From: a bacterium
GTDB lineage: Bacteria; Patescibacteriota; Patescibacteriia; Patescibacteriales; XYC2-FULL-47-12
Direction of reading: 5' to 3'
NCBI GenBank assembly: GCA_030698385.1
Contig: JAUYLZ010000018.1
Coordinates: forward strand, 42,744-106,743
Length of the DNA stretch: 64,000 bases
The first letter of the stretch is position 1. Every line of letters starts with the position of its first letter. Both the position numbers and the translations under genes were made by a program. Shown here in pieces: positions 39,369-48,731 of this stretch. The notes below the pieces were generated by a model, which did not search any database, was not told the origin of the DNA, and saw only the letters and a program-made list of their open reading frames with translations.

Positions 39369-40523
39369 TTAACAAATTATTTTTTCAATGCGTTCAAGAC
39401 CGGCGCGCAACTGATTCTCACTCACCGCGCAGGTGATACGACAGCAATTGTCAAAATCGCCAAAAGCAATTCCCGGGACAACGGCGACATTGGCTTGGTT
39501 AAGCAAGTGCTCGGCAAATAGAATTGAATTGATTCCGTTTTTTTCATTCATAAACGGAGAAAAATCAGGGAAGGCGTAAAAACCGCCGTCAGCGCCGCCG
39601 CAAAAAATGTTTAACCTTTTAAACCAACACCACAACAGTTCTCTTTGTTTGGCATAGCAATGAATCAACGGCTCTTGATTAAGCGCCTCGACCGCCGCGC
39701 ACTGTCCAATGCTATTTGGGCAACCGGAAAATGTTTCTAAGTACAGCGTAACTTTTTGCGCCAACTCCGCCGGCATAATGCCGTAACCGATTCGCCAGCC
39801 CGTCATTGCGTACGCCTTGGAAAATGATCCGATAATGACCGCGTTTGGATCAAATCGTAAATAAGACTGTTCAAATCCGACCGGATAATAACATTCGTCA
39901 GAAATAACGGCAATGCCGGCCGTTCCCTGCCGATACCGCTTGGCCAGCTGGCTGATCTCTTTTACGACCGAATCGCTGTAAACGGCTCCAGTCGGATTAT
40001 TTGGCGTATTTAAAAGCAAGCAAATTAAGCCAACAAAACCGTTGGCAAGCAACGCTTGTAAATAACGCTCCATTTCACTGGTGACTGGGACAAAATTTTT
40101 GTCACACTCCAACAAATAAACCTTCCCTCCTAGCGATTTGATTCCAAAAAAGTAAGGCGGGTAATGCGGTGTCGGCATCAGCACCGGCTGATCCTGATCA
40201 ATGAGCGTCCAAAATACCGCTGTCGCGACGCTCTTGGCGCCATTGGAAATAACCACCTGTTCCGGTTTAACGCGGTACCTTTGAGCGATACCGGCGCGCA
40301 ACTCAATAGAGCCGCTGGCCGGCGTATACCTGGTTTGATGCAAGTTAATCGCTTTTTGAGCGTGCCTCTCAATTGCCTCAGGCGTATTAAGAAAAGATTC
40401 GCCCACTCCCAGATTAATAATCTCTCTTCCGTCTGCCTGCAAAGACTTAATTTTTTTCAATAAATCCTGCAATGGCGATGGTTCCAAATATTTGCTACGG
40501 AAACTAAACTGCGTTGACATCAC
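39369..40523 (-). CDS. class I/II PLP-dependent aminotransferase (aromatic/aspartate type)
   Basis: SFSKAYAMTGWRIGY Lys motif and NPNNPTG. Last gene after the PDT and PDH genes. Confidence 0.8.
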   Translation of the reverse strand: MMSTQFSFRSKYLEPSPLQDLLKKIKSLQADGREIINLGVGESFLNTPEAIERHAQKAINLHQTRYTPASGSIELRAGIAQRYRVKPEQVVISNGAKSVATAVFWTLIDQDQPVLMPTPHYPPYFFGIKSLGGKVYLLECDKNFVPVTSEMERYLQALLANGFVGLICLLLNTPNNPTGAVYSDSVVKEISQLAKRYRQGTAGIAVISDECYYPVGFEQSYLRFDPNAVIIGSFSKAYAMTGWRIGYGIMPAELAQKVTLYLETFSGCPNSIGQCAAVEALNQEPLIHCYAKQRELLWCWFKRLNIFCGGADGGFYAFPDFSPFMNEKNGINSILFAEHLLNQANVAVVPGIAFGDFDNCCRITCAVSENQLRAGLERIEKIIC

Positions 40524-40546
40524 TTTTTCTCCTTTACATTTAAAAT

Positions 40547-41257
40547 TTAAAGAACTTTATTTTTTACTGACTGTATCGCTCTGACAAACTTACTAATTTC
40601 AGTTCTGGCGTAAGGATTGTACTGTATCATATCGGTAAACAGTTGCCAAGTGTCTTTACTAACATGATCGTTAATGGCCAACATTCTGTCAAAACCGGGC
40701 GTTTTGATCTTTTGATCTTTGATATTGGCGGCGCTAAGAGCTCGGCCGATAAAATGAACCAAGGCTAAGCTGCTTGCCGCCTGCCGGTCGTGATCCGACG
40801 GCGTGGTGATAATAATTTTTAAACCAAGACTCCTAAAAACCGCCTTTACTTTAGATAACATTTTTTTATCAATGGCAATCGGGCAAAGGACGATTTGCAG
40901 GTTGCGCAAACCAAATTTGGCGCTGTCCGGCCCAAACATCGGGTGCGTTCCTAAAATGTTTACGTCCGCGGGCAAATGTTTTCGCAACCACTCGCAAGGA
41001 TACACTTTTACCGAGGCCACGTCCATGATCACGGCGCCGGGCTTGAGCTTATTGCTGATATTTTTAATCAGACTCTCAAGTTTGGAAATAGGCACGGCCA
41101 AAATTATCCAATCCATTTCAGGCAGTTTTTGCAGGGTAGTAACTTTATGCCGGCAATTAACTTTTTTGTTGGCAATAATAAAAATCTGACCGTATGGCGC
41201 GAAAATTTTTGCCGCTAATTTTCCAAATCGACCGAAGCCGATAATGCAAATATTCAT
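40547..41257 (-). CDS. tyrA: prephenate/arogenate dehydrogenase
   Basis: MNICIIGFGRFGKLAA Rossmann start, DVASVK and HPMFGP. Confidence 0.75.
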   Translation of the reverse strand: MNICIIGFGRFGKLAAKIFAPYGQIFIIANKKVNCRHKVTTLQKLPEMDWIILAVPISKLESLIKNISNKLKPGAVIMDVASVKVYPCEWLRKHLPADVNILGTHPMFGPDSAKFGLRNLQIVLCPIAIDKKMLSKVKAVFRSLGLKIIITTPSDHDRQAASSLALVHFIGRALSAANIKDQKIKTPGFDRMLAINDHVSKDTWQLFTDMIQYNPYARTEISKFVRAIQSVKNKVL

Positions 41258-41258
41258 A

Positions 41259-41825
41259 CTATTTCTTGGCAGCCAAAATAAATGTCGTAAAGTTGAACTT
41301 CAAATCCTGAATGCTCTCTTCAAGTATTTCTAAGTCATACAATTCAGCCGCGCGTTTGGGCGCGATGACCGCAGCATTGGATGGCAATACTCCGGCGGAC
41401 AAATCTTTGGCTGCCTGCGCCGTGTCGCTCCACTCAATTAATTCAGCGCCTTGCCAACGCCTTTTTAAATACATACGGCATTGTTTTAAAGCCTGATCAT
41501 GAGATGCAATTTTTTTTATATCTTCTTTAGCGACTCCTGGCAAAGCCATTAAATTGTGCTTAACATCAATTTCGAAGATATTTTCAATTGAAAAAGTATG
41601 TTTAGCCATAGCGTAAATCGCTTCATATACTATACCTCCGTTTGAGTTTTCAATCGGAAAAACTCCTCTGTCAATTTTGCCGCCAATTAATGAATTTAAA
41701 ACATTTTCAACACTGATTAAATATCTTAATTCATAATCAACGATATTGTTTTTTTGGCAATAATATTGCGCGGCTTCTTCGGAAAAACTGCCCTCACTGC
41801 CGGACACGCCGATTGTTATATGCAT
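41259..41825 (-). CDS. pheA: prephenate dehydratase domain protein (no ACT domain)
   Basis: 188 aa. GSEGSFSEEAA and VFPIENSNGGIV PDT motifs. Ends before any regulatory ACT domain. Confidence 0.8.
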   Translation of the reverse strand: MHITIGVSGSEGSFSEEAAQYYCQKNNIVDYELRYLISVENVLNSLIGGKIDRGVFPIENSNGGIVYEAIYAMAKHTFSIENIFEIDVKHNLMALPGVAKEDIKKIASHDQALKQCRMYLKRRWQGAELIEWSDTAQAAKDLSAGVLPSNAAVIAPKRAAELYDLEILEESIQDLKFNFTTFILAAKK

Positions 41826-41908
41826 ATTTTTTTTAATTATTAAATAATTGTATTAGTAAAGGAATAAGGGGCAGACGGGAAAAATCTGCCCCAAAAAGAA
41901 CATTCGCG

Positions 41909-42151
41909 TTAAGCAACCTGTTCAATAAAATCTGAACTGCAATCCAATACTTTTACTATACCGATTTTCACTTTTTTTTCAAATCTTTCAATGGTTTCAA
42001 TATCGCTGATCGCAACCTCAGCGAACAGCTCCGGATGCTGTTCATCATAATAAATGAGCAGGCCAATGTTTTCCGCAGCTTTTGCGTAATTAATTAAATC
42101 GCTAAAAGTTGCTTCATTATTCAGTTTCTCTAAATTCCGCCATAAAACCAT
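41909..42151 (-). CDS. hypothetical 80-aa protein
   Basis: Start moved to MVLWRNLEK (AAGGAG, then 8 nt, then ATG). The track uses an upstream TTG. Confidence 0.4.
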   Translation of the reverse strand: MVLWRNLEKLNNEATFSDLINYAKAAENIGLLIYYDEQHPELFAEVAISDIETIERFEKKVKIGIVKVLDCSSDFIEQVA

Positions 42152-42170
42152 TATATTATCTCCTTTGTAA

Positions 42171-42344
42171 CTACTTATAGTTTCTGACAAAACTCCAACT
42201 TCTGCGTCCCTTGAATAAATTTTTACACTTGCTTCGCTTCTGATGCCAATACCTAGCTCGGTTATTTTCTTGATTCACGTCTTCCGTGCTTTCTTGAGTA
42301 AATTCAGTCTCCACATCTTGTTCTTTGCTACATTTTTTCTGCAT
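42171..42344 (-). CDS. hypothetical 57-aa protein (acidic N-terminus, basic C-terminus)
   Basis: Not in the track. AAGGAG, then 8 nt, then ATG: MQKKCSKEQDVETEFTQESTEDVNQENNRARYWHQKRSKCKNLFKGRRSWSFVRNYK*. Confidence 0.35.
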   Translation of the reverse strand: MQKKCSKEQDVETEFTQESTEDVNQENNRARYWHQKRSKCKNLFKGRRSWSFVRNYK

Positions 42345-42432
42345 TTGATATTCTCCTTCTTGCCCCGTCCTTTAGGCGGGGTTCATTTTTTTATTTTTTT
42401 AAAAGAACAACTCCCTTTCTTGAACTAAAATA

Positions 42433-42623
42433 TAAAAAAACTGACCCCCTTGCGGAAGCCAGTTTTTTTGTTTCCCTAATGATGTATTATAACTTATAAA
42501 ACATCACCAAAAACTGCACTTCCGCGCTGGAAGCCGTAAAAGAAAAAGCTAAAGCTTAATACAGTTTTTGCTAATGTTTTAATCATATGTGGATATTCTA
42601 ACACAGATTTTTAAAAAAAACAA
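42433..42623 (-). promoter_or_regulatory. Phe-type leader-peptide transcription attenuator
   Basis: TGtTAGAAT extended -10 (42595-42600) sits 8 nt before the AUG. Antiterminator GCGGAAG-TG-CAGTTTTT pairs with AAAAACTG-G-CTTCCGC. Terminator ACTGGCTTC cgcaag GGGGTCAGT plus U7 (42433-42466). Confidence 0.6.
42494..42586 (-). CDS. Phe/Tyr-rich leader peptide (30 aa)
   Basis: MIKTLAKTVLSFSFFFYGFQRGSAVFGDVL*. Not in the track. No SD; the AUG is 8 nt after the -10. Confidence 0.55.
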   Translation of the reverse strand: MIKTLAKTVLSFSFFFYGFQRGSAVFGDVL

Positions 42624-42746
42624 GCGGTTGTCCACACCGCGCTAAAACAGAGCTTATTACGGTATAAATAAATCAATTAATTAAAGCTAATATTAAAATA
42701 AAAAACCACTTTTTAAACAAAAGTGGCTAAAAAATTAGATTACAAT

Positions 42747-43508
42747 TTAATTAATCGGCTGCAACTTCTCTGGATAAGTTGCGTTGATCAATGCGCGCGC
42801 TAAAATCAGCGTCGGATCAATCATTATTGTTCCATCAATTTCTTTTTCGGTAATCGCTAATGGTATTTCCGTGCAACCTAGAATTACCGCTTGCGCTCCT
42901 TTTTTTTGCAAATGCTGAACGCCTCGCAAAAATTCGCCGCGCGCTTTTTCGGTCACCGGACTGGATTGCGCTTTGATGCCGTAAGTCTCATCGTAAATTG
43001 CGTTATGAACCATATTCTGCACATCCTCATCAAGCACAACTACCTTAAATCCTTTTGCTTCAAGAATGGCGGGATAGACTTTTGATCGGAAAGTTCCGAT
43101 TGTGGAAAGAACGCCGATGGTTTTGACATCAGGATAGTTCGCCGAAACATATTTCGCCACCTCCTCAATCATATTCAGAAGTGTTCCGGAAAAACCAGTT
43201 TTTATCAACCGCTCATTGATAACATTAAATATCTGCGGTGAATGCATTGTGTTGCAAGGTATGCCAATAACATCAGCTCCCGCGACATACATGCGCAAAA
43301 TAATATCAGCAACTGCCGGCGCGGGATTATCAACTTTTCCCAACAAAAATTGGGTACGATCATTAATGCGTTCAGAAAATGACAGGTGTAGTACTGGCAG
43401 ATGCTCCTGATCATTTAACGCTTGAGTGTTATCCAGAATTTTTTTGTGCAAATCAAGTCCGGCGTATGGGCCGACTCCGCCGACTATTCCAATTACTTTT
43501 TTTTCCAT
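42747..43508 (-). CDS. aspartate racemase (Asp/Glu racemase family)
   Basis: IGIVGGVGPYAGLDL, IPCNTMH and ILGCTEIP. Start moved to MEKKVIG (AGGAG, then 7 nt, then ATG). Own promoter TTGCAA-17-TATGAT. Confidence 0.8.
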   Translation of the reverse strand: MEKKVIGIVGGVGPYAGLDLHKKILDNTQALNDQEHLPVLHLSFSERINDRTQFLLGKVDNPAPAVADIILRMYVAGADVIGIPCNTMHSPQIFNVINERLIKTGFSGTLLNMIEEVAKYVSANYPDVKTIGVLSTIGTFRSKVYPAILEAKGFKVVVLDEDVQNMVHNAIYDETYGIKAQSSPVTEKARGEFLRGVQHLQKKGAQAVILGCTEIPLAITEKEIDGTIMIDPTLILARALINATYPEKLQPIN

Positions 43509-43615
43509 ATCATTTCTCCTTAATACTATTTTCTTCATCATAGCAGTTTGCGCTAAATTTGCAAGAAAAAGAGCCATTGTAAAAATGGCTCTTGATTTTA
43601 AAGAACAAAAATAAG

Positions 43616-45280
43616 CTAAACTGCTACTTCTTTAGGAAGTTCCTCTTGGCTTGACTTTGATTCTAAATGAGCCAAAAACCAGCTCAAACAATTGGCAAAC
43701 GACTGAGCTGTCGCTTGAGTCGTATCAAGATCAACTGAATGGCCGGTAAACAGATTGTGGCCATTATTTTCTACGCGAATCCGAGAAAAAACCGTGGCCA
43801 ATCCTTCAGTACCACCGCCTTTAACAAGACCAGCTTTCCAATCGTCAAGTTTTATTTCCCAATTATTTAAATCGGGGAAAAAATGCTTGGCGGCGGTCAA
43901 GACGGCTTTCATCACGGCGTCATATGTTCCGTCTCCTGAATTTGTTACGGTAACGGAATTTCCGTTAACTGCCATAGATACCGCGGCGGTCGGAATCGTG
44001 CCGCTGCCGCCAAATGCCTGACAGTGAGTAATATTCATGAGATAAGGAACGTCATCTACGCAATCTTGAACGATGGCCGCTATCTCTTCTTCGGAAGCCT
44101 CTCTCATGTTCTTTGATTCTGACAGCCGCATCACCTGTTCATAAATTACCTGCAACTGGTCTCTAGCCACCTTGTAACCCATTTCCTCAAGTTTTTTTTG
44201 CACGCCGGGACGACCAGAGTTAACGTCAATGACATAATTAAACTTGACGCCATGGCCATACTTGGAAGGATCCCAGCTGTAATAAGGACTGGTTTTATTC
44301 TGCTTCTCGGCCTTTTCCTCAATGCCTTGGTGCGTGCCCGCGCTGCAAATTTTATTCTGTTCCCCAACCACCGGCCAATGACGCGGCACGGTCATACCAA
44401 GCTTATTGGCAATGAAGTGAACTATTCTGCAACAATGACTAATGTCAAAATTAACTGCCAAGTTGACAAACCTAATATCTTGCATACAATCACTGCGTGT
44501 GGCCAAATTCCAAAGAATTGATTCGAATTTTGTCATGCCGCTGCGCTCACCCAGTCCAAAAAAAGTTCCTTCAACAATACTTGCGCCCCGCAAAATTGCC
44601 TGCAAAGCATTGTTGGTTGCGTGATCACTGTCGTTATGACAATGGACTGAAATGTGCGCGTCGGCAATATTTGAAACACGTTCAAATAATGTTTTAATAA
44701 TGCTTCCAAATTCATCACCAATTCGCAAACCGGTTGTGTCTGGAATGTTTACCACGGTGGCGCCGGCGTCTATAACGGTCTCGACAATCTCACACAGAAA
44801 ATCAATTTCAGTGCGTGCGGCATCTTCGGGAGAAAATTCCACATGTTCAAAACCGATACTGCGCGCGTATCGCACTATCCGCTCGGCAGTATTTAGATAC
44901 CACTGCTGTTTCCCCTCTTTGGTATCCCCATACTTGCTGTCATAAAACTGGGTCAAAAGCAATTCGTCGCTGGTTGGAATATAGATATGACACAAATCAC
45001 AACCGGCTTCCTTAACCGCCATCACACCTTTCTCCAGCGCAATTGTCAAACCGCCTAAGAGCGGCCTATCTTCCACACTCAGTTCATTAACAAACTTAAC
45101 AATTCTTTGACAATTTTCCATTTGCTTTTGCGAGCTATATGGATAGCCAATCTCAATTCGATCAATACCGCCATCAATCAACATTTTAACATAGGTTAAT
45201 TGATCCTGCGGCGACATGGAGCCACCTTCAACCTGCGCTGACTCCCGCAAAGCTACATCGTTTAATAATATCCTTCTCAT
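43616..45280 (-). CDS. leuA: 2-isopropylmalate synthase (with C-terminal LeuA regulatory domain)
   Basis: 554 aa with an HMGL-like barrel (IEIGYP, HCHNDSDHATNNAL) and a long C-terminal domain. Followed by terminator AGAGCCATT..AATGGCTCT plus a U run. Confidence 0.8.
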   Translation of the reverse strand: MRRILLNDVALRESAQVEGGSMSPQDQLTYVKMLIDGGIDRIEIGYPYSSQKQMENCQRIVKFVNELSVEDRPLLGGLTIALEKGVMAVKEAGCDLCHIYIPTSDELLLTQFYDSKYGDTKEGKQQWYLNTAERIVRYARSIGFEHVEFSPEDAARTEIDFLCEIVETVIDAGATVVNIPDTTGLRIGDEFGSIIKTLFERVSNIADAHISVHCHNDSDHATNNALQAILRGASIVEGTFFGLGERSGMTKFESILWNLATRSDCMQDIRFVNLAVNFDISHCCRIVHFIANKLGMTVPRHWPVVGEQNKICSAGTHQGIEEKAEKQNKTSPYYSWDPSKYGHGVKFNYVIDVNSGRPGVQKKLEEMGYKVARDQLQVIYEQVMRLSESKNMREASEEEIAAIVQDCVDDVPYLMNITHCQAFGGSGTIPTAAVSMAVNGNSVTVTNSGDGTYDAVMKAVLTAAKHFFPDLNNWEIKLDDWKAGLVKGGGTEGLATVFSRIRVENNGHNLFTGHSVDLDTTQATAQSFANCLSWFLAHLESKSSQEELPKEVAV

Positions 45281-45340
45281 TTTTTTCTTTTACCCCGTCC
45301 AAATTTATTTGGCAGGGCTTTCTCCTTTAATATTTTTGTT
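45278..45340 (-). promoter_or_regulatory. conserved 5' leader hairpin element, copy 2 (leuA)
   Basis: Minus-sense ACAAAAATATTAAAGGAGAAAGCCCTGCCAAATAAATTTGGACGGGGTAAAAGAAAAAAAATG. The left arm differs from copy 1 (CCCTG vs CTCCG) but still pairs through G.U. Confidence 0.5.
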
Positions 45341-45446
45341 TTTCGACTTCATAGCCGAATAAATATACATTATTTGTCATTCCTGTGTAGGCAGGAATCC
45401 AGAAATATATATTTCCCCCGGCCATGAAATGTTTGTAAAGAGCTTT

Positions 45447-45656
45447 AAAAAACAAAAAGCCACCCGTTTGGATGGTTTTCTACAACTTTTATACGTTTAT
45501 ATATGAATTAACGCCTTACGCTTTCGCGTTTAAACCATCCAAAAAATCTCGGCCAAGGAGGCTGAGCAAGAGGCTTAAAAGCAATAAGCTTTTGCTAATT
45601 TTTTGCATGATTTTACTCATATATAAATATCCTAACATATTTTTAAAAACTGTCAA
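45447..45656 (-). promoter_or_regulatory. Leu-type leader-peptide transcription attenuator upstream of leuA
   Basis: TTGACA-16-TAGGAT, with the AUG 8 nt after the -10. Antiterminator TTTGGATGGTTT (in the CDS, plus 45532-45543) pairs with AAACCATCCAAA (45467-45478). Terminator CCATCCaaacGGGTGG followed by CUUUUUGUUUUUU. Confidence 0.65.
45516..45620 (-). CDS. Leu-rich leader peptide (34 aa)
   Basis: MSKIMQKISKSLLLLSLLLSLLGRDFLDGLNAKA*. Nine Leu in an 11-residue stretch, using TTA/TTG/CTT/CTC codons. Not in the track. Confidence 0.6.
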   Translation of the reverse strand: MSKIMQKISKSLLLLSLLLSLLGRDFLDGLNAKA

Positions 45657-46171
45657 ATCGCACGCTGTTGCTGTAGTATTTTTACCTGTTTTTCCAATTC
45701 TTGGTACTTTTGTTTTAATTCCTGAACATCACTATTCATTGCCGCCACATCCTCAGATTCCATTCTCATAATACGATCAATTTTTGCCTCAACGCGCGCC
45801 AAATCATTCCGAAATGTTTCCATTTCTGTATGAATCATGCTCAATTCATGTTTAACAAAAACCATGTCCTGCTTTAAACCAGAAACATCTTCTTTCAAAC
45901 CAGAAACATCTTCTTTCAAACCAGAAACATCTTCTTTCAAACCAGAAACATCTTCTTTCAAGCCAGAAACATCTTCTTTCAAACCAGAAACATCTTCTTT
46001 CAAACCAGAAACATCTTCTTTCAAACCAGAAACATCTTCTTTCAAACCAGAAACATCCTGCTTTAAAACACCAATATCTTTTTTAATTGGCTCAAGCGCA
46101 ACATCAAGCGCCGCCTCAATACTGACGTCAATTACTTCTTTGATTGATTGTAGATCACTTTTATCTAACAT
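45653..46171 (-). CDS. coiled-coil protein with DVSGLK[EQ] heptad array
   Basis: 172 aa, nine consecutive 7-aa units, helical flanks. Confidence 0.6.
   Translation of the reverse strand: MLDKSDLQSIKEVIDVSIEAALDVALEPIKKDIGVLKQDVSGLKEDVSGLKEDVSGLKEDVSGLKEDVSGLKEDVSGLKEDVSGLKEDVSGLKEDVSGLKQDMVFVKHELSMIHTEMETFRNDLARVEAKIDRIMRMESEDVAAMNSDVQELKQKYQELEKQVKILQQQRAI
45876..46064. repeat. 21-bp tandem repeat, about 9 units
   Basis: AAACCAGAAACATCTTCTTTC repeated head to tail. One unit has AAG for AAA; the last has ..CATCCTGCTTT. Confidence 0.9.
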
Positions 46172-46288
46172 AAAATATTAATTTACTTTAACTGTATGTT
46201 ATCACTTTCTTATATAAAAAACAAGAGCCGTTCCAAAAACGAAACGGCTCGAAAAACCATAAAGAACAAATAAAAAATAATGCGCTGT

Positions 46289-46636
46289 TTAAAATGTTGC
46301 TACCGGCTGTGTATTATGTATTTGCGGAAGGTCACGCCGTTCCACCTGAAATTCAGGCGGAAACACAACTTGTAAACTCTGACAAAGATGATTGCCTGAT
46401 TTATTTTCAACTGGATAACAATCACCCCAATTAACTGGACCATTCCTTGAAGCGCAAAGAAACCACTTATATTCTCGCCACGCCTTTGCATTCTGACGAT
46501 GCAAATTTTCCCAAAAGGCTCTAATCCCACCCATATCTGCTGATACCGTCATTAGTACCGCGTTAATTGGATGTTCCTTGTTACTTTGAAAAAGCGCGAA
46601 AAGACCCACATTTTTGGCACTCCCTGAATCATGCAT
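46289..46636 (-). CDS. hypothetical 115-aa protein
   Basis: Start moved to MHDSGSAKN (AGAGGTGG, then 3 nt, then ATG). Followed by terminator GAGCCGTT..AACGGCTC plus a U run. Confidence 0.4.
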   Translation of the reverse strand: MHDSGSAKNVGLFALFQSNKEHPINAVLMTVSADMGGIRAFWENLHRQNAKAWREYKWFLCASRNGPVNWGDCYPVENKSGNHLCQSLQVVFPPEFQVERRDLPQIHNTQPVATF

Positions 46637-46710
46637 AATCCACCTCTTTCTTATTTTTTTTAAGCACACACTTTTGCAAGTTGCGGCTCCTCTGTCTAAA
46701 TAAGACAACT

Positions 46711-46901
46711 AAAAAAGTCCCGCCGGGGCGGAACTTTTCTCTGTTGAATTATTTATGCTTTTATATATGAGAAAAACTTCCACCCCCAGGCTGGCTAATA
46801 ATAATACTAATAATACTTGCCCCGCCTTTATGGCTGGGGATTGTTTTGCGGAAATTTTTCATAGTTACTTATTATATTATCATAATAAAAATGTTTGTCA
46901 A
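46711..46901 (-). promoter_or_regulatory. Ile-type leader-peptide transcription attenuator
   Basis: TTGACA-16-TAATAT, with the AUG 11 nt after the -10. Antiterminator GGGGTGGAAgTTTT (CDS, plus 46773-46786) pairs with AAAAgTTCCGCCCC. Terminator GTTCCGC(C)cc(G)GCGGGAC plus U6 (46711-46734). Confidence 0.55.
46761..46862 (-). CDS. Ile-rich leader peptide (33 aa)
   Basis: MKNFRKTIPSHKGGASIISIIISQPGGGSFSHI*. Five ATT codons within six positions. Not in the track. Confidence 0.5.
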   Translation of the reverse strand: MKNFRKTIPSHKGGASIISIIISQPGGGSFSHI

Positions 46902-47003
46902 TTTTGGCAATTTTGCGATTTGACTTAAATCATTAAATATTTTAGTATTAAAAAGCAATAAAAAATCTCAAGCAGAGGTGAAAAATGGAATCATTCAAAA
47001 AAT

Positions 47004-47783
47004 ATGTTTATAACTATTATCAATGACTGCCAAGACGATAACGCGCGCGCTCGACAATTAACCCGCGTTTCAACATTATTTAAGGTTCCGGCCAATTTTG
47101 TCAGTGTCAAAAATGACCTGGAAGCGGCCGGAAATATTATTGACATTCTGGATGCGTCGCAGAAAAAAACCGGCGCAGTCTTGGTAAATGTCGCACCGCG
47201 CAACGGCTCTGCCAAACACTGGAAAAACGGTACGCCTTTCGCTTATTTTTATTATGGCAAAACTTTGGCGCTCGCCTCGGTTGACGGCCTTACTCTGTCG
47301 TTGGTTAAAAAATTAAAACTGACCAAATTCGTAAATATCCTAGATCTGGAAAAAAGTGTAAAGCTCATGGAAAAAAAAAAGAAACTATCAACATCTGAGG
47401 TTGGTAAAATTATCAATACGCAATTCCGCAGTTTTGAATTCCTGCCACGCGCGGCCAGCTGGCTCACACAGGGTTATAAATTGCCTTTTGAAAAAATTAG
47501 TATTGAAAAAATTTCTGACGCGCCAAATGCCATTTGGTGGATTGATAACTTCGGCAACTGCAAAACAACTGTCTTAAGCGCCGAATTAGCAGAAATAAAA
47601 CTTATAAAAAAACTGCAAAAACTTCCCTGCTATCCACGGCTTAAAGATTTGCCGGATAACAAAACCGGTTTAATCGCGGGCAGTTCCGGCATTAATAATA
47701 ACCGCTTTGTTGAAATAATGACTCAAGGCGACAGTACGGCCAAGAAGTTAAAACTAAAGAGTGGTGAAGTTATCGCAAAATAA
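47004..47783 (+). CDS. divergent DUF62 / SAM hydroxide adenosyltransferase-like protein
   Basis: From my recall of archaeal DUF62 sequences, WWIDNFGNCKTTV matches IYIDDFGNVILNL. Likewise NRFVEIMTQGDSTAKKLKLKSGEVI matches [23 protein letters not shown]. The N-terminal TDFG motif is replaced by NDCQ. Confidence 0.5.
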   Translation: MFITIINDCQDDNARARQLTRVSTLFKVPANFVSVKNDLEAAGNIIDILDASQKKTGAVLVNVAPRNGSAKHWKNGTPFAYFYYGKTLALASVDGLTLSLVKKLKLTKFVNILDLEKSVKLMEKKKKLSTSEVGKIINTQFRSFEFLPRAASWLTQGYKLPFEKISIEKISDAPNAIWWIDNFGNCKTTVLSAELAEIKLIKKLQKLPCYPRLKDLPDNKTGLIAGSSGINNNRFVEIMTQGDSTAKKLKLKSGEVIAK

Positions 47784-47839
47784 AAGAGCTAATCATTTGA
47801 CTAGCTCTAAAAAGAACGAAACTAAACCGCGCTAAATTT

Positions 47840-48154
47840 TTAATTGGTGATCTGCTTTAGCTGATCAGCCGACATTTTTTCACAAATTTCTTTAGCCAGA
47901 ATAATATCAACTGGACCGCCATTTAAATTTAATGACTGGATTGCCTTTTTTACTGTTATAAAAACAACTTCCTCTTCTCTTGGGTGATAGTCGGCGAACG
48001 TATAAAGCAACTTCCTGTCTCCGGTCACAACCATTTTAATGCCCGCTTTGTAGCAATAATTAGATTTGTTAACCGGAAAACCTTTTCGAACTCTAGCTTG
48101 CGGTCTAAACTGTGTTACTCCATCATCAAACATGATTTCAATTTTCATCATCAT
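47840..48154 (-). CDS. hypothetical 104-aa protein
   Basis: Track ORF. GGAG lies upstream. Immediately follows the 56-aa ORF. Confidence 0.4.
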   Translation of the reverse strand: MMMKIEIMFDDGVTQFRPQARVRKGFPVNKSNYCYKAGIKMVVTGDRKLLYTFADYHPREEEVVFITVKKAIQSLNLNGGPVDIILAKEICEKMSADQLKQITN

Positions 48155-48169
48155 CTTTCTCCTTTTTTT

Positions 48170-48340
48170 TTAAAATCTAACGGTAGCGACATTTTCTTGC
48201 AATCTTCGTAAATGATAGCCCAACTTTCTTTGTTCGTAACTATCTTTCTTATTCAATCTTTCAAGCTTGTGTTTAATCTGAAAAATCTGTCGACTGCATT
48301 CCTCAACTTTTACTACTACTGACGGTGTCACTTCGCGCAT
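48170..48340 (-). CDS. hypothetical 56-aa protein
   Basis: Not in the track. AGGAGG, then 7 nt, then ATG: MREVTPSVVVKVEECSRQIFQIKHKLERLNKKDSYEQRKLGYHLRRLQENVATVRF*. Confidence 0.4.
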   Translation of the reverse strand: MREVTPSVVVKVEECSRQIFQIKHKLERLNKKDSYEQRKLGYHLRRLQENVATVRF

Positions 48341-48364
48341 GGTACTTCCTCCTTGATAAATTTT

Positions 48365-48566
48365 AAAAGATCAAACTAAAGAGGCCACCCTTTTGGATGG
48401 CCTCAATTTTTATTTTGCTAATATATTAAAACGATAAATGCCATCCAAAAAATGCCGAAGCAATAACTGCTACGACGACTGCGAGTACTACTGCTAAAAC
48501 AGCGTTAATTTTTTGGATAGCTAAACTCATATTTATATATTTTAGCTGATACTAAAATTTTGTCAA
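48365..48566 (-). promoter_or_regulatory. Val/Ala-type leader-peptide transcription attenuator
   Basis: TTGACA-16-TAAAAT, with the AUG 8 nt after the -10. Antiterminator TTTTGGATGGC (CDS, plus 48440-48450) pairs with GCCATCCAAAA. Terminator GAGGCCATCCaaaaGGGTGGCCTC (48381-48404) followed by UUUAGUUUG. Confidence 0.6.
48426..48530 (-). CDS. Val/Ala-rich leader peptide (34 aa)
   Basis: MSLAIQKINAVLAVVLAVVVAVIASAFFGWHLSF*. Seven Val and seven Ala. Not in the track. Confidence 0.5.
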   Translation of the reverse strand: MSLAIQKINAVLAVVLAVVVAVIASAFFGWHLSF

Positions 48567-48608
48567 CTCCGCGCTAAAACTTGTTAGGTTTCAAGCAACT
48601 TTTTTTAC

Positions 48609-48731
48609 CTATTCATCTTTATCATCATTTTCTTTTGTTATAAAAATTTTGGCTAAAACTACAGCGATACCGGCAATTAAGGCGGCGATTAAAACAATCG
48701 GTTTATTAATTGTTTTGATAACTTTTTTCAT
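48609..48731 (-). CDS. 40-aa single-TM peptide coupled to ndk
   Basis: MKKVIKTINKPIVLIAALIAGIAVVLAKIFITKENDDKDE*. The ATG lies 2 nt after the ndk stop. The N-terminus resembles the four leader peptides, but there is no terminator or alternative hairpin. Confidence 0.4.
   Translation of the reverse strand: MKKVIKTINKPIVLIAALIAGIAVVLAKIFITKENDDKDE

Follow-up and report, generated by a model that had tools for sequence, protein, structure and literature searches.

The attenuators of the enterobacterial trp, leu, pheA, his, thr and ilvGMEDA operons sense the charging of transfer RNA (tRNA) through ribosome stalling (summarised in PMC4007540 and bioRxiv 10.1101/834739). A near-leaderless system has been described at Corynebacterium glutamicum ilvBNC, where the transcript starts 1 nucleotide (nt) before ilvL, the IlvL peptide is rich in branched-chain residues, and three hairpins are distinguished: H1, an anti-antiterminator over the initiation region; H2, the antiterminator; and H3, the terminator (PMC11857589). 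Leader peptides in this species have been assigned to trpE, leuA, ilvB and aroF (aromatic) (PMC3890552), and 14 leaderless leader peptides have been predicted in Deinococcus deserti (PMC4007540). In mycobacteria, leaderless polycysteine open reading frames (ORFs), named a ‘ribulon’, sense Cys at the level of translation, unmasking the Shine–Dalgarno (SD) sequence of the next gene with no terminator involved (bioRxiv 10.1101/834739). Four attenuator-like units, all on the minus strand and built to one common plan, lie within 42.4–48.6 kb of a 64-kb stretch of the Patescibacteria contig JAUYLZ010000018.1 (‘the window’, with positions counted from its first letter).

These units quite probably attenuate transcription through the ribosome, on transcripts that are leaderless or nearly so, and each carries a codon run devoted to one amino acid or class. 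Graded by unit, the comparative evidence makes this reading highly probable for the Leu unit, very likely for the aromatic (Phe) unit, likely for the Ile unit and moderately likely for the Val-type unit. A preliminary description of this DNA knew of no account of a duplicated, codon-swapped, leaderless version in a small genome of this kind; its claim to novelty was overstated, given that near-leaderless leaders of this layout are known in C. glutamicum (PMC11857589) and predicted in D. deserti (PMC4007540), and that leaderless Cys ORFs operate in mycobacteria (bioRxiv 10.1101/834739). Full-text literature searches returned nothing relevant linking Patescibacteria or the candidate phyla radiation (CPR) to attenuators or attenuation leader peptides.

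Four units on one plan

Each unit comprises a promoter, a leader ORF whose 30–34 codons include the run, and a hairpin with its U tract (Table 1). The ATG lies 8–11 nt past the -10 hexamer in all four, with no SD-like sequence upstream of it; a single SD-like 4-mer at the Leu unit is part of the -10 hexamer TAGGAT, and was rejected as an SD. As SD-like motifs are uncommon across the genome (12 of 49 long ORFs), it is the placement of a promoter right at the ATG that is telling, and this promoter geometry suggests a transcription start at or near the AUG. Promoter-like sites in the region number 42 (25.3 +/- 5.0 expected) and terminator-like sites 20 (8.8 +/- 2.7 expected); the terminator scan recovers all four unit terminators between the leader ORF and the next gene. 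No further units were found in the window outside 42.4–48.6 kb.

The run holds nine Leu in 11 codons (with four Leu codon types across the whole ORF) in the Leu unit, five Ile in six codons in the Ile unit, five Phe and one Tyr in eight codons in the aromatic unit, and seven Val in 13 codons, mixed with Ala, in the Val-type unit. Within the ORF the order is constant: segment 1 follows the AUG, then come the codon run, segment 2 and the stop codon, with segments 3 and 4 and the U tract beyond. Segment 2 begins 4–19 nt past the run and the stop falls 6–16 nt past segment 2, except in the aromatic unit, where the stop overlaps the 3' end of segment 2. The predicted minimum-energy fold of every unit combines a long helix, joining nt ~5–30 to the 3' end of the ORF, with the terminator (z-scores of -5.8, -4.8, -3.7 and -7.0 against dinucleotide shuffles). 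In every unit, one and the same ORF segment can pair either with the 5' end or with the left arm of the terminator: for example, UUUUGGAUGGC with GCCAUCCAAAA in the Val-type unit, and UUUGGAUGGUUU with AAACCAUCCAAA in the Leu unit.

Positions, promoter geometry, ORFs and terminators together bear out the preliminary description of four minus-strand modules that share one architecture and lack an SD. Its assignment of one amino acid to each codon run holds for Leu, Ile and Phe/Tyr; the ‘Val’ run is a mixture of Val, Ala and Leu, the least specific of the four, and being keyed to Val is a weak claim (Val 7, Ala 6, Leu 2, with orthologous runs differing in composition). Paralogy of the units is plausible, in that they share blocks of 19–22 nt at 86–90% identity, among them 22 nt common to the Val-type and Leu terminators at 86%. 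The four types are too different for one joint covariance model.

Conservation in related Patescibacteria

Related contigs were obtained by LeuA look-ups and by one scan of metagenomes with a DNA pattern (TTTTGGATGG..CCATCYAAA..GGRTGG). The scan gave 55 loci, nine of them with real units, including some duplicates; those of use were L096, L102, L108, L118, L119, L120 and L126, and ~45 of the 55 belong to a GC-rich repeat of marine origin that has nothing to do with the units. A genome-collection scan with a single LeuA protein gave zero confirmed loci, and a scan with a 49-sequence LeuA alignment gave distant loci only (L002–L081, ~30% identity), a consequence of the generic peptide patterns chosen, and these were set aside.

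Across the window and 12 related contigs, about 29 units were recognised: 13 Leu, eight aromatic, four Ile (with a possible fifth in L146), three Val-type and two of an Ile/Val type. Of 26 units checked, 22 have the ATG 5–11 nt past the -10 hexamer, and three Leu units added later have it at 6 nt; an SD was found in none. Promoters of the Leu and Ile units follow the form TTGACA, 16–17 nt, TAATAT, 6–11 nt, ATG, and those of the orthologous aromatic units the form TTGCAT, 17 nt, TGaTAAATT, an invariant ATCCACAT, ATG. Orthologous units from run-plus-terminator scans likewise have terminators, the Leu unit of L085 offering none that could be scored under a stricter test.

In several units the run residue fits a recognisable pathway. 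As first proposed for the window, the Leu unit stands directly upstream of a LeuA gene: a Leu-run leader with terminator occupies this position in all ten LeuA loci for which DNA was obtained (the window, L082, L083, L085, L119, L142, L143, L144, L145 and L146). The LeuA-like proteins form a clade of ~50 sequences at 46–57% identity, the next matches falling to 32%; members with a named source belong to Patescibacteria or the Parcubacteria group, plus one to Margulisbacteria. In L120, L126 and L102, the Leu unit precedes a protein of 64–94 amino acids (aa) rather than LeuA. A Phe/Tyr/Trp leader in L082, MHKTLLKTAFYFSFWFYGFRRAESSVFSGVLTK, lies upstream of genes for 3-deoxy-D-arabinoheptulosonate 7-phosphate (DAHP) synthase and chorismate mutase, with no intervening terminator, and in L083 and L085 an Ile/Val leader (M..KLPK.LDIVVVVSLIIPT, with the run DIVVVVSLIIPT) precedes an IlvA-like PALP gene.

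Synteny of L082 with the window extends over genes for RecG, a response regulator and a kinase; a 46-aa membrane ORF, the Val-type unit and a small ORF; the Ile unit and its 115-aa protein; a coiled-coil protein; the Leu unit and LeuA; and the aromatic unit, a 79-aa ORF, prephenate dehydratase remnants, DAHP synthase and chorismate mutase.

Codon-level comparison separates what is conserved as peptide from what is conserved as RNA. Between three and five different Leu codons make up a Leu run, in a selection that varies among orthologues. The aromatic run always has Phe at positions 12, 14, 16 and 19 and Tyr at position 17, with F, Y, W, S or G at positions 11, 13 and 15; Trp occurs in six of the seven aligned aromatic leaders, the window copy having lost it and kept one Tyr. 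Within the run it is the amino acid that is under selection, and outside it the RNA: at the nucleotide level, segments 1 and 2 are kept, with changes compensated.

Mutually exclusive RNA pairings

The pairings 1:2, 2:3 and 3:4 are kept across orthologues, and directly observed compensatory changes accompany them. For the aromatic units (seven sequences), the terminated state, made up of 1:2, an inner hairpin and 3:4 (46 pairs), is 95.7% paired, against 44–58% in slid controls; seven pairs are changed on both sides, a number that 0 of 500 shuffles reach (alignment A2), and four such pairs lie in the 1:2 helix. The extended 2:3 pairing (29 pairs) is 92.1% paired (slid controls 36–56%). Its length owes to a box, CA(Y)(Y)AGGGAAAAC, present between stop and terminator in all aromatic units (window 42470..42484, minus strand; columns 116–132 of alignment A2), whose partner is the 3' half of segment 2 (UGGUG / UAGUG ... 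GUUUU); this pairing shows compensatory changes and lengthens the antiterminator to ~29 bp. Column 85, in segment 2, covaries with both column 20 of segment 1 and column 123 of segment 3, the signature of mutually exclusive pairings.

Among the Leu units (eight sequences), the 2:3 helix (12 pairs) is 92.6% paired (slid controls 26–60%) and 3:4 is 94.4% paired (20–56%); the RNAalifold consensus is the 2:3 helix. The Leu unit of L102 illustrates concerted change: GGAUGG in segment 2 has become GGGUGG, matched by CCACCC in segment 3, by ACCCAA in segment 1, and in segment 4. The Ile units (four sequences) are 94% paired for 1:2 and 3:4 (slid controls 48–74%) and 85% paired for 2:3 (46–71%). Segment 1:2 beats dinucleotide shuffles in 7/7 aromatic, 4/4 Ile (p 0.000 in each), 3/3 Val-type (p 0.000 for the window duplex) and 2/2 Ile/Val units, and in the minimum-energy folds of the window units the helix starts 0–9 nt past the AUG.

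The layout of three alternating pairings that the preliminary description assigned to all four units is found in the folds and retained in the orthologues, and its suggestion that the shared N-termini of the peptides reflect an RNA constraint gains support from the covariation of segment 1 with segment 2 inside the coding sequence. Its reading of the units as attenuators is strengthened likewise, by their conservation in relatives, by the match of run to pathway, and by the compensated pairings.

Ribosome position, predicted folds and a proposed mechanism

Constrained folding, in which a ribosome footprint from the 5' end through the A site +12 was masked and the probability of the terminator, P(terminator), was scored both on defined core stems and on automatically found hairpins, indicates where a ribosome might act. 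In eight of nine scorable Leu units, P(terminator) is ~0 through the last run codon and rises to 0.75–0.99 within one to three codons; the same switch is predicted in both Ile/Val units, in the Ile units of the window and L120, and in the Val-type unit of L102. The window switch points run from L22 to R24 in the Leu unit and from I22 to Q24 in the Ile unit, where P(terminator) is 0 through I22 and 0.83 from Q24. In Leu and Ile units the run ends 10–15 nt ahead of segment 2 (4 nt in L142), a gap of roughly what a ribosome covers ahead of its A site. Masking gives a dip only in the Val-type units of the window and L082, and the aromatic units, with terminators of -19 to -25 kcal/mol, show no switch at equilibrium. 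Since aromatic terminators win at equilibrium, unless the core stem alone is considered, regulation there would have to be kinetic.

The scheme suggested by these observations, in which start site, stalling, termination and the role of segment 1 are all putative, would run as follows. Transcription would start 0–4 nt ahead of the AUG, and a ribosome would load on the 5' end. The runs would each sense one amino acid or class: Leu; Ile; Val/Ala/Leu; and Phe/Tyr (Phe/Tyr/Trp in relatives). With the amino acid plentiful, the ribosome would cross segment 2 as RNA polymerase makes segments 3 and 4; the vacated segment 2 would be captured by segment 1, an anti-antiterminator, 3:4 would pair, and transcription would stop. 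With the cognate tRNA poorly charged, the ribosome would stall in the run, between segments 1 and 2, leaving segment 2 exposed. Segment 1 would meanwhile be covered by stalled or queued ribosomes, or sterically kept off, which is the principal presumed step; segment 2 could then pair with segment 3, no terminator would form, and the downstream gene would be transcribed. In the event of no translation, 1:2 would pair, the terminator would form, and the 5' AUG region would be occluded.

Several points weigh against this scheme. The terminators of the Val-type and aromatic units are so stable that, with the A:U extension included, folding at equilibrium favours termination almost wherever the ribosome stands; a switch emerges there only from a kinetic argument or from the core stem taken alone. 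With a single ribosome and no steric exclusion, 1:2 is predicted to close around the stalled ribosome, leaving little dynamic range, so that the model requires segment 1 to be unavailable during the stall. Support for segment 1:2 is marginal in the Leu units (p 0.05–0.2 per unit), and the Ile covariation, with four sequences available, does not reach significance. Several Leu units came from the DNA-pattern scan, which fixed segments 2, 3 and 4, so that conservation there is partly built in; the Leu units of L119, L120 and L126 are not independent for these segments, whereas their aromatic and Ile units are. The Val-type, Ile and, in the window, aromatic units precede small proteins without a known link to amino-acid metabolism. 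Lastly, the Val-type peptide is hydrophobic enough for a membrane peptide, and resembles a neighbouring conserved 40-aa membrane ORF.

Alternative explanations

Charging of tRNA could be sensed with the main output lying elsewhere than in termination: in translational coupling, in messenger RNA (mRNA) stability, or in a leader RNA or peptide acting in trans, as with Sinorhizobium trpL. Such outputs have precedents in the translational action of mycobacterial leaderless Cys ORFs (bioRxiv 10.1101/834739) and in documented trans-acting attenuator products (PMC6614838, PMC7298713), and the small non-metabolic proteins behind half of the units would sit well with them. The canonical hairpin and U tract of every unit point to termination instead, and the downstream SDs, 60–160 nt past the terminator, are unpaired with the leader in predicted folds; taken as the main output, these alternatives appear unlikely.

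A second possibility is that the small ORFs encode functional hydrophobic peptides, either small membrane proteins or type I toxin-like peptides, with hairpins that end their own transcripts and downstream genes that are expressed independently. The mRNAs of type I toxins typically have long 5'–3' fold-back helices, the hydrophobic stretch of the Val-type peptide (~20 residues) could span a membrane, and its N-terminus aligns with that of the adjacent 40-aa membrane ORF. The hydrophobic runs of the Leu, Ile and aromatic peptides are, however, only 6–12 residues long, too short for a membrane, and no spanning segment is conserved as peptide: conservation tracks the RNA segments and the run residue, the latter kept through synonymous codons, and the peptide drifts elsewhere. 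Complementarity of the ORF 3' end to the left arm of the terminator, which all units show and compensatory changes accompany, is nothing that a plain terminator requires. In the window and in L082, promoter scans turned up no promoter separating an attenuator from its first downstream gene, and the Leu run goes together with a LeuA gene at 10/10 loci. We regard the reading as peptide genes as very unlikely.

Rfam at gathering thresholds identifies three tRNAs only in the window, with no leader family and no T-box; at E up to 10, Phe_leader (RF01859) reaches 27.8, 21.4 and 20.4 bits against 55, the rnk leader 28.1 against 55, and a T-box is again lacking. A translation-independent RNA switch (riboswitch, T-box-like element or protein-bound leader) with incidental ORFs could account for RNA structure that is strongly conserved, in places above the peptide, yet it is scarcely credible in view of this lack of any T-box, riboswitch or other match, the -10 to ATG spacing kept in 22/26 units and in the three later Leu units, the runs conserved as amino acids with synonymous variation, and the predicted switching of folds, for the majority of Leu, Ile and Ile/Val units, at the very codon boundary that closes the run.

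Genes and features of the attenuator region

Table 1. Positions of the four units and the genes that follow them in the window.
Feature	Position	Strand	Remarks
Val-type promoter	48539..48566	-	TTGACA (48566), 16 nt, TAAAAT, 8 nt, ATG; 11/12 matches in promoter scan
Val-type leader ORF	48426..48530	-	34 aa, MSLAIQKINAVLAVVLAVVVAVIASAFFGWHLSF; orthologues in L082, L102
Val-type segments	segment 1 48508..48521; Val/Ala/Leu run 48465..48503; segment 2 48440..48453	-	
Val-type terminator	hairpin 48404..48381; with U tract 48372..48404	-	segments 3/4 GAGGCCAUCC AAAA GGGUGGCCUC + UUUAGUUUG
Genes after Val-type unit	47840..48340	-	56-aa ORF 48170..48340 and 104-aa ORF 47840..48154, both with SD; operon end, terminator 47808..47785
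Ile promoter	46874..46901	-	TTGACA (46901), 16 nt, TAATAT, 11 nt to ATG; 8 nt from overlapping TATAAT
Ile leader ORF	46761..46862	-	33 aa, MKNFRKTIPSHKGGASIISIIISQPGGGSFSHI; orthologues in L082, L102, L120 with longer Ile runs
Ile segments	segment 1 46848..46860; Ile run 46797..46814; segment 2 46771..46787	-	run with five ATT
Ile terminator	hairpin 46740..46711; with U tract 46707..46739	-	segments 3/4 GAAAAGUUCCGCCCC / GGCGGGACUUUU + U tract
Gene after Ile unit	46289..46636	-	115-aa protein, W_115 family; operon end, terminator 46250..46225
Leu promoter	45629..45656	-	TTGACA (45656), 16 nt, TAGGAT with preceding TG, 8 nt, ATG; overlaps stop of coiled-coil gene
Leu leader ORF	45516..45620	-	34 aa, MSKIMQKISKSLLLLSLLLSLLGRDFLDGLNAKA
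Leu segments	segment 1 45597..45613; Leu run 45555..45587; segment 2 45532..45548	-	
Leu terminator	hairpin 45478..45455; with U tract 45447..45478	-	segments 3/4 AAACCAUCCAAAC / GGGUGGCUUUU + U tract
LeuA-family gene	43616..45280	-	554 aa, HMGL-like + LeuA_dimer; best NCBIfam match 2-isopropylmalate synthase; operon end, terminator 43593..43569
Aromatic promoter	42590..42624	-	weak -35 TTGTTT, 17 nt, TG-extended -10 TGtTAGAAT, conserved ATCCACAT, ATG; 8 nt from -10 to ATG
Aromatic leader ORF	42494..42586	-	30 aa, MIKTLAKTVLSFSFFFYGFQRGSAVFGDVL
Aromatic segments	segment 1 42560..42582; Phe/Tyr run 42530..42553; segment 2 42497..42525	-	segment 2 with inner hairpin
Aromatic terminator	hairpin 42469..42434; whole 42427..42484	-	extended segment 3 CAUCAUUAGGGAAAC...CUGGCUUCCGC, segment 4 GGGGGUCAG, U tract
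Genes after aromatic unit	41909..42344	-	57-aa ORF 42171..42344 and 80-aa ORF 41909..42151 (W_80 family); then intrinsic terminator 41892..41868
pheA region	39369..41825	-	prephenate dehydratase 41259..41825; prephenate dehydrogenase 40547..41257; class I/II aminotransferase 39369..40523

The window Leu unit serves LeuA alone: a terminator closes the operon, and the amino-acid racemase gene that comes next has its own promoter. In L083 (9945..) and L085 (11006..), a ~620-aa protein fuses a PALP domain (threonine dehydratase-like) to a LeuA allosteric dimerisation domain; we know of no description of such a fusion. Between the Ile and Leu operons, in the window and in L082, lies the gene for a 172-aa coiled-coil protein (45653..46171, minus strand), in which ~ten tandem 21-nt repeats (45831..46124) encode the heptad VSGLKED; the L082 orthologue is 62% identical, 147 aa long, and has fewer repeats.

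The aromatic unit was placed by the preliminary description upstream of the genes for prephenate dehydratase, prephenate dehydrogenase and an aminotransferase; the position is correct, with two small ORFs and a terminator (41892..41868) intervening. As this terminator precedes pheA, the aromatic unit could act on pheA only by way of read-through, and indirectly at best. The 57-aa and 80-aa proteins directly behind the unit have no Pfam or NCBIfam match; members of the W_80 family lie behind the aromatic units of L119, L120 and L143 also. Prephenate dehydratase is only 188 aa long, consisting of the catalytic PDT domain without the usual C-terminal ACT regulatory domain, and at the corresponding position in L082 (7383..7692) there are fragments only, a 44-aa PDT N-terminus and a 75-aa ACT-like C-terminus (by eye), which suggests decay of the gene there. 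The pheA ATG lies 8 nt past a TAATTA hexamer with no SD (41826..41868, minus strand), a spacing equal to that of the leader units; the promoter scan called no promoter at this hexamer, and pheA itself may be translated from a leaderless transcript.

The W_115 family, which in the window follows the Ile unit, does so also in L082 and L120. Its window member has no Pfam or NCBIfam match, and an exhaustive phmmer search of 1.84 billion representatives found one other relative only. Ile makes up 2.6% of the window protein, 0.0% of that in L082 (3676..4023), 5.0% of that in L120 (2313..2672) and 2.5% of P0123, compared with 8.2% of the long ORFs of the window; such a low content would suit a protein made during Ile shortage. 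Depletion of the cognate residue holds for this Ile-regulated family only, the Val-regulated proteins showing none.

The 56-aa and 104-aa proteins of the Val-type operon belong to no Pfam or NCBIfam family and are not conserved in L082 or L102. For the small downstream proteins in general, a word-indexed homology search returned only the proteins themselves, and AlphaFold2 models were unusable, with a mean predicted local distance difference test score (pLDDT) of 49 and 51.

A fifth small ORF, of 40 aa (MKKVIKTINKPIVLIAALIAGIAVVLAKIFITKENDDKDE; 48609..48731, minus strand), stands just after ndk, and was rejected as an attenuator, being a conserved small membrane protein without a terminator. 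It is ~70% identical by eye to the 46-aa ORF of L082 (2658..2798), is conserved far better than the leader peptides, and has the look of a genuine small membrane protein. At its N-terminus it can be aligned with the Val-type leader, of which it may be a paralogue or the ancestor. The 46-aa ORF of L082 has a promoter of its own (TTGGCA, 17 nt, TATAAT, with the ATG 8 nt past the -10), and the Val-type leader there starts 18 nt past its stop.

Exactly three copies of the 10-mer TTTAGCGCGG are present in the window, all of them in the attenuator region (42637..42646, 47827..47836 and 48569..48578, minus strand). Two of these are found 2 nt ahead of the -35 hexamers of the Val-type and Phe units, within a 21-nt block that is 90% identical, and the third comes after the 104-aa ORF; with one mismatch allowed there are 11 matches (5.4 +/- 2.2 expected). 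The element may serve as a binding site for a regulator, or be left over from a duplication.

Beyond the cluster, 33.9–37.4 kb of the window is syntenic with 4683..7662 of L120, a 206-kb contig, with genes for a Na/Ca exchanger, one further protein, adenylate kinase and methionine aminopeptidase. L120 is without LeuA and the pheA-tyrA-aminotransferase genes, yet keeps Ile, Leu and aromatic units ahead of small ORFs, so that these sensors either outlived the biosynthetic genes or predate them. The window itself encodes many tRNA synthetases and few biosynthetic enzymes, a gene content in keeping with a small genome of Patescibacteria type.

A tentative interpretation, which we consider possible rather than probable, is that the units form a clustered, amino-acid-specific starvation regulon (a ‘ribulon’), their sensors of tRNA charging being partly uncoupled from biosynthesis. 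The small, fast-evolving, lineage-specific proteins (W_115, W_80 and a family of 148–158 aa) would then be starvation effectors; the regulon may be driven by the Ile, Val-type and aromatic units and, in some genomes, the Leu units, in hosts that may import most amino acids.

Comparison with described systems

The value of these units lies in extension and annotation rather than in concept. For this lineage they provide sequence-level evidence of sigma-70-type promoters and of leaderless translation, as well as of transcription closely followed by translation, which attenuators need. No Rfam model covers them, and their annotation across metagenome-assembled genomes could show which amino acids uncultured organisms monitor; in addition, small uncharacterised protein families become tied to a specific amino-acid shortage, which offers a route to their function.

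The enterobacterial attenuators resemble the present units in having a short ORF with a cognate run, the alternating pairings 1:2, 2:3 and 3:4, and an intrinsic terminator before the gene. Enterobacterial leaders, however, start from an SD inside a 5' untranslated region (UTR), their control codons overlap segment 1, and segment 2 is masked by the ribosome that has reached the stop codon; the present units have neither SD nor UTR, and their stop lies 6–16 nt past segment 2, or overlaps it in the aromatic unit. With the leaderless ORFs of the mycobacterial ribulon, the units share a sensory ORF in which stalling on a codon run would remodel the downstream RNA, and the use of one logic at several loci, but canonical terminators with U tracts point here to transcriptional rather than translational control.

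The sets of leader peptides in D. deserti and C. glutamicum are alike in that the leader ORF opens a leaderless or 1-nt-leader transcript and several amino acids are represented per genome. They precede genes for tRNA synthetases or biosynthesis, whereas half of the units here precede small proteins; lineage and sequences also differ, and the units described here lie within 6 kb and share sequence blocks.

The C. glutamicum ilvBNC transcript is near-leaderless, as promoter geometry suggests for the units here, and has three overlapping alternative hairpins, as they do. A putative 5' anti-antiterminator of the ilvBNC type is recognisable in the 1:2 helix, which covers the initiation region and beats shuffles in 16/16 non-Leu units. 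The two differ in phylum, no sequence similarity was found between them, and the ORF here has 30–34 codons against 15. Since that ORF spans segment 1, run and segment 2, its control codons sit in the loop of the 5' helix, and not in the 5' arm as in ilvBNC; moreover, each locus here has a set of four related units that differ in amino acid, some of them ahead of non-biosynthetic genes. The mechanism is classical and its leaderless three-hairpin form already described; what is new is the lineage, for which the literature searches found no earlier report, and the remaining differences from known systems, namely a longer ORF, codons in the helix loop, four units in 6 kb and small-protein targets, are of degree.

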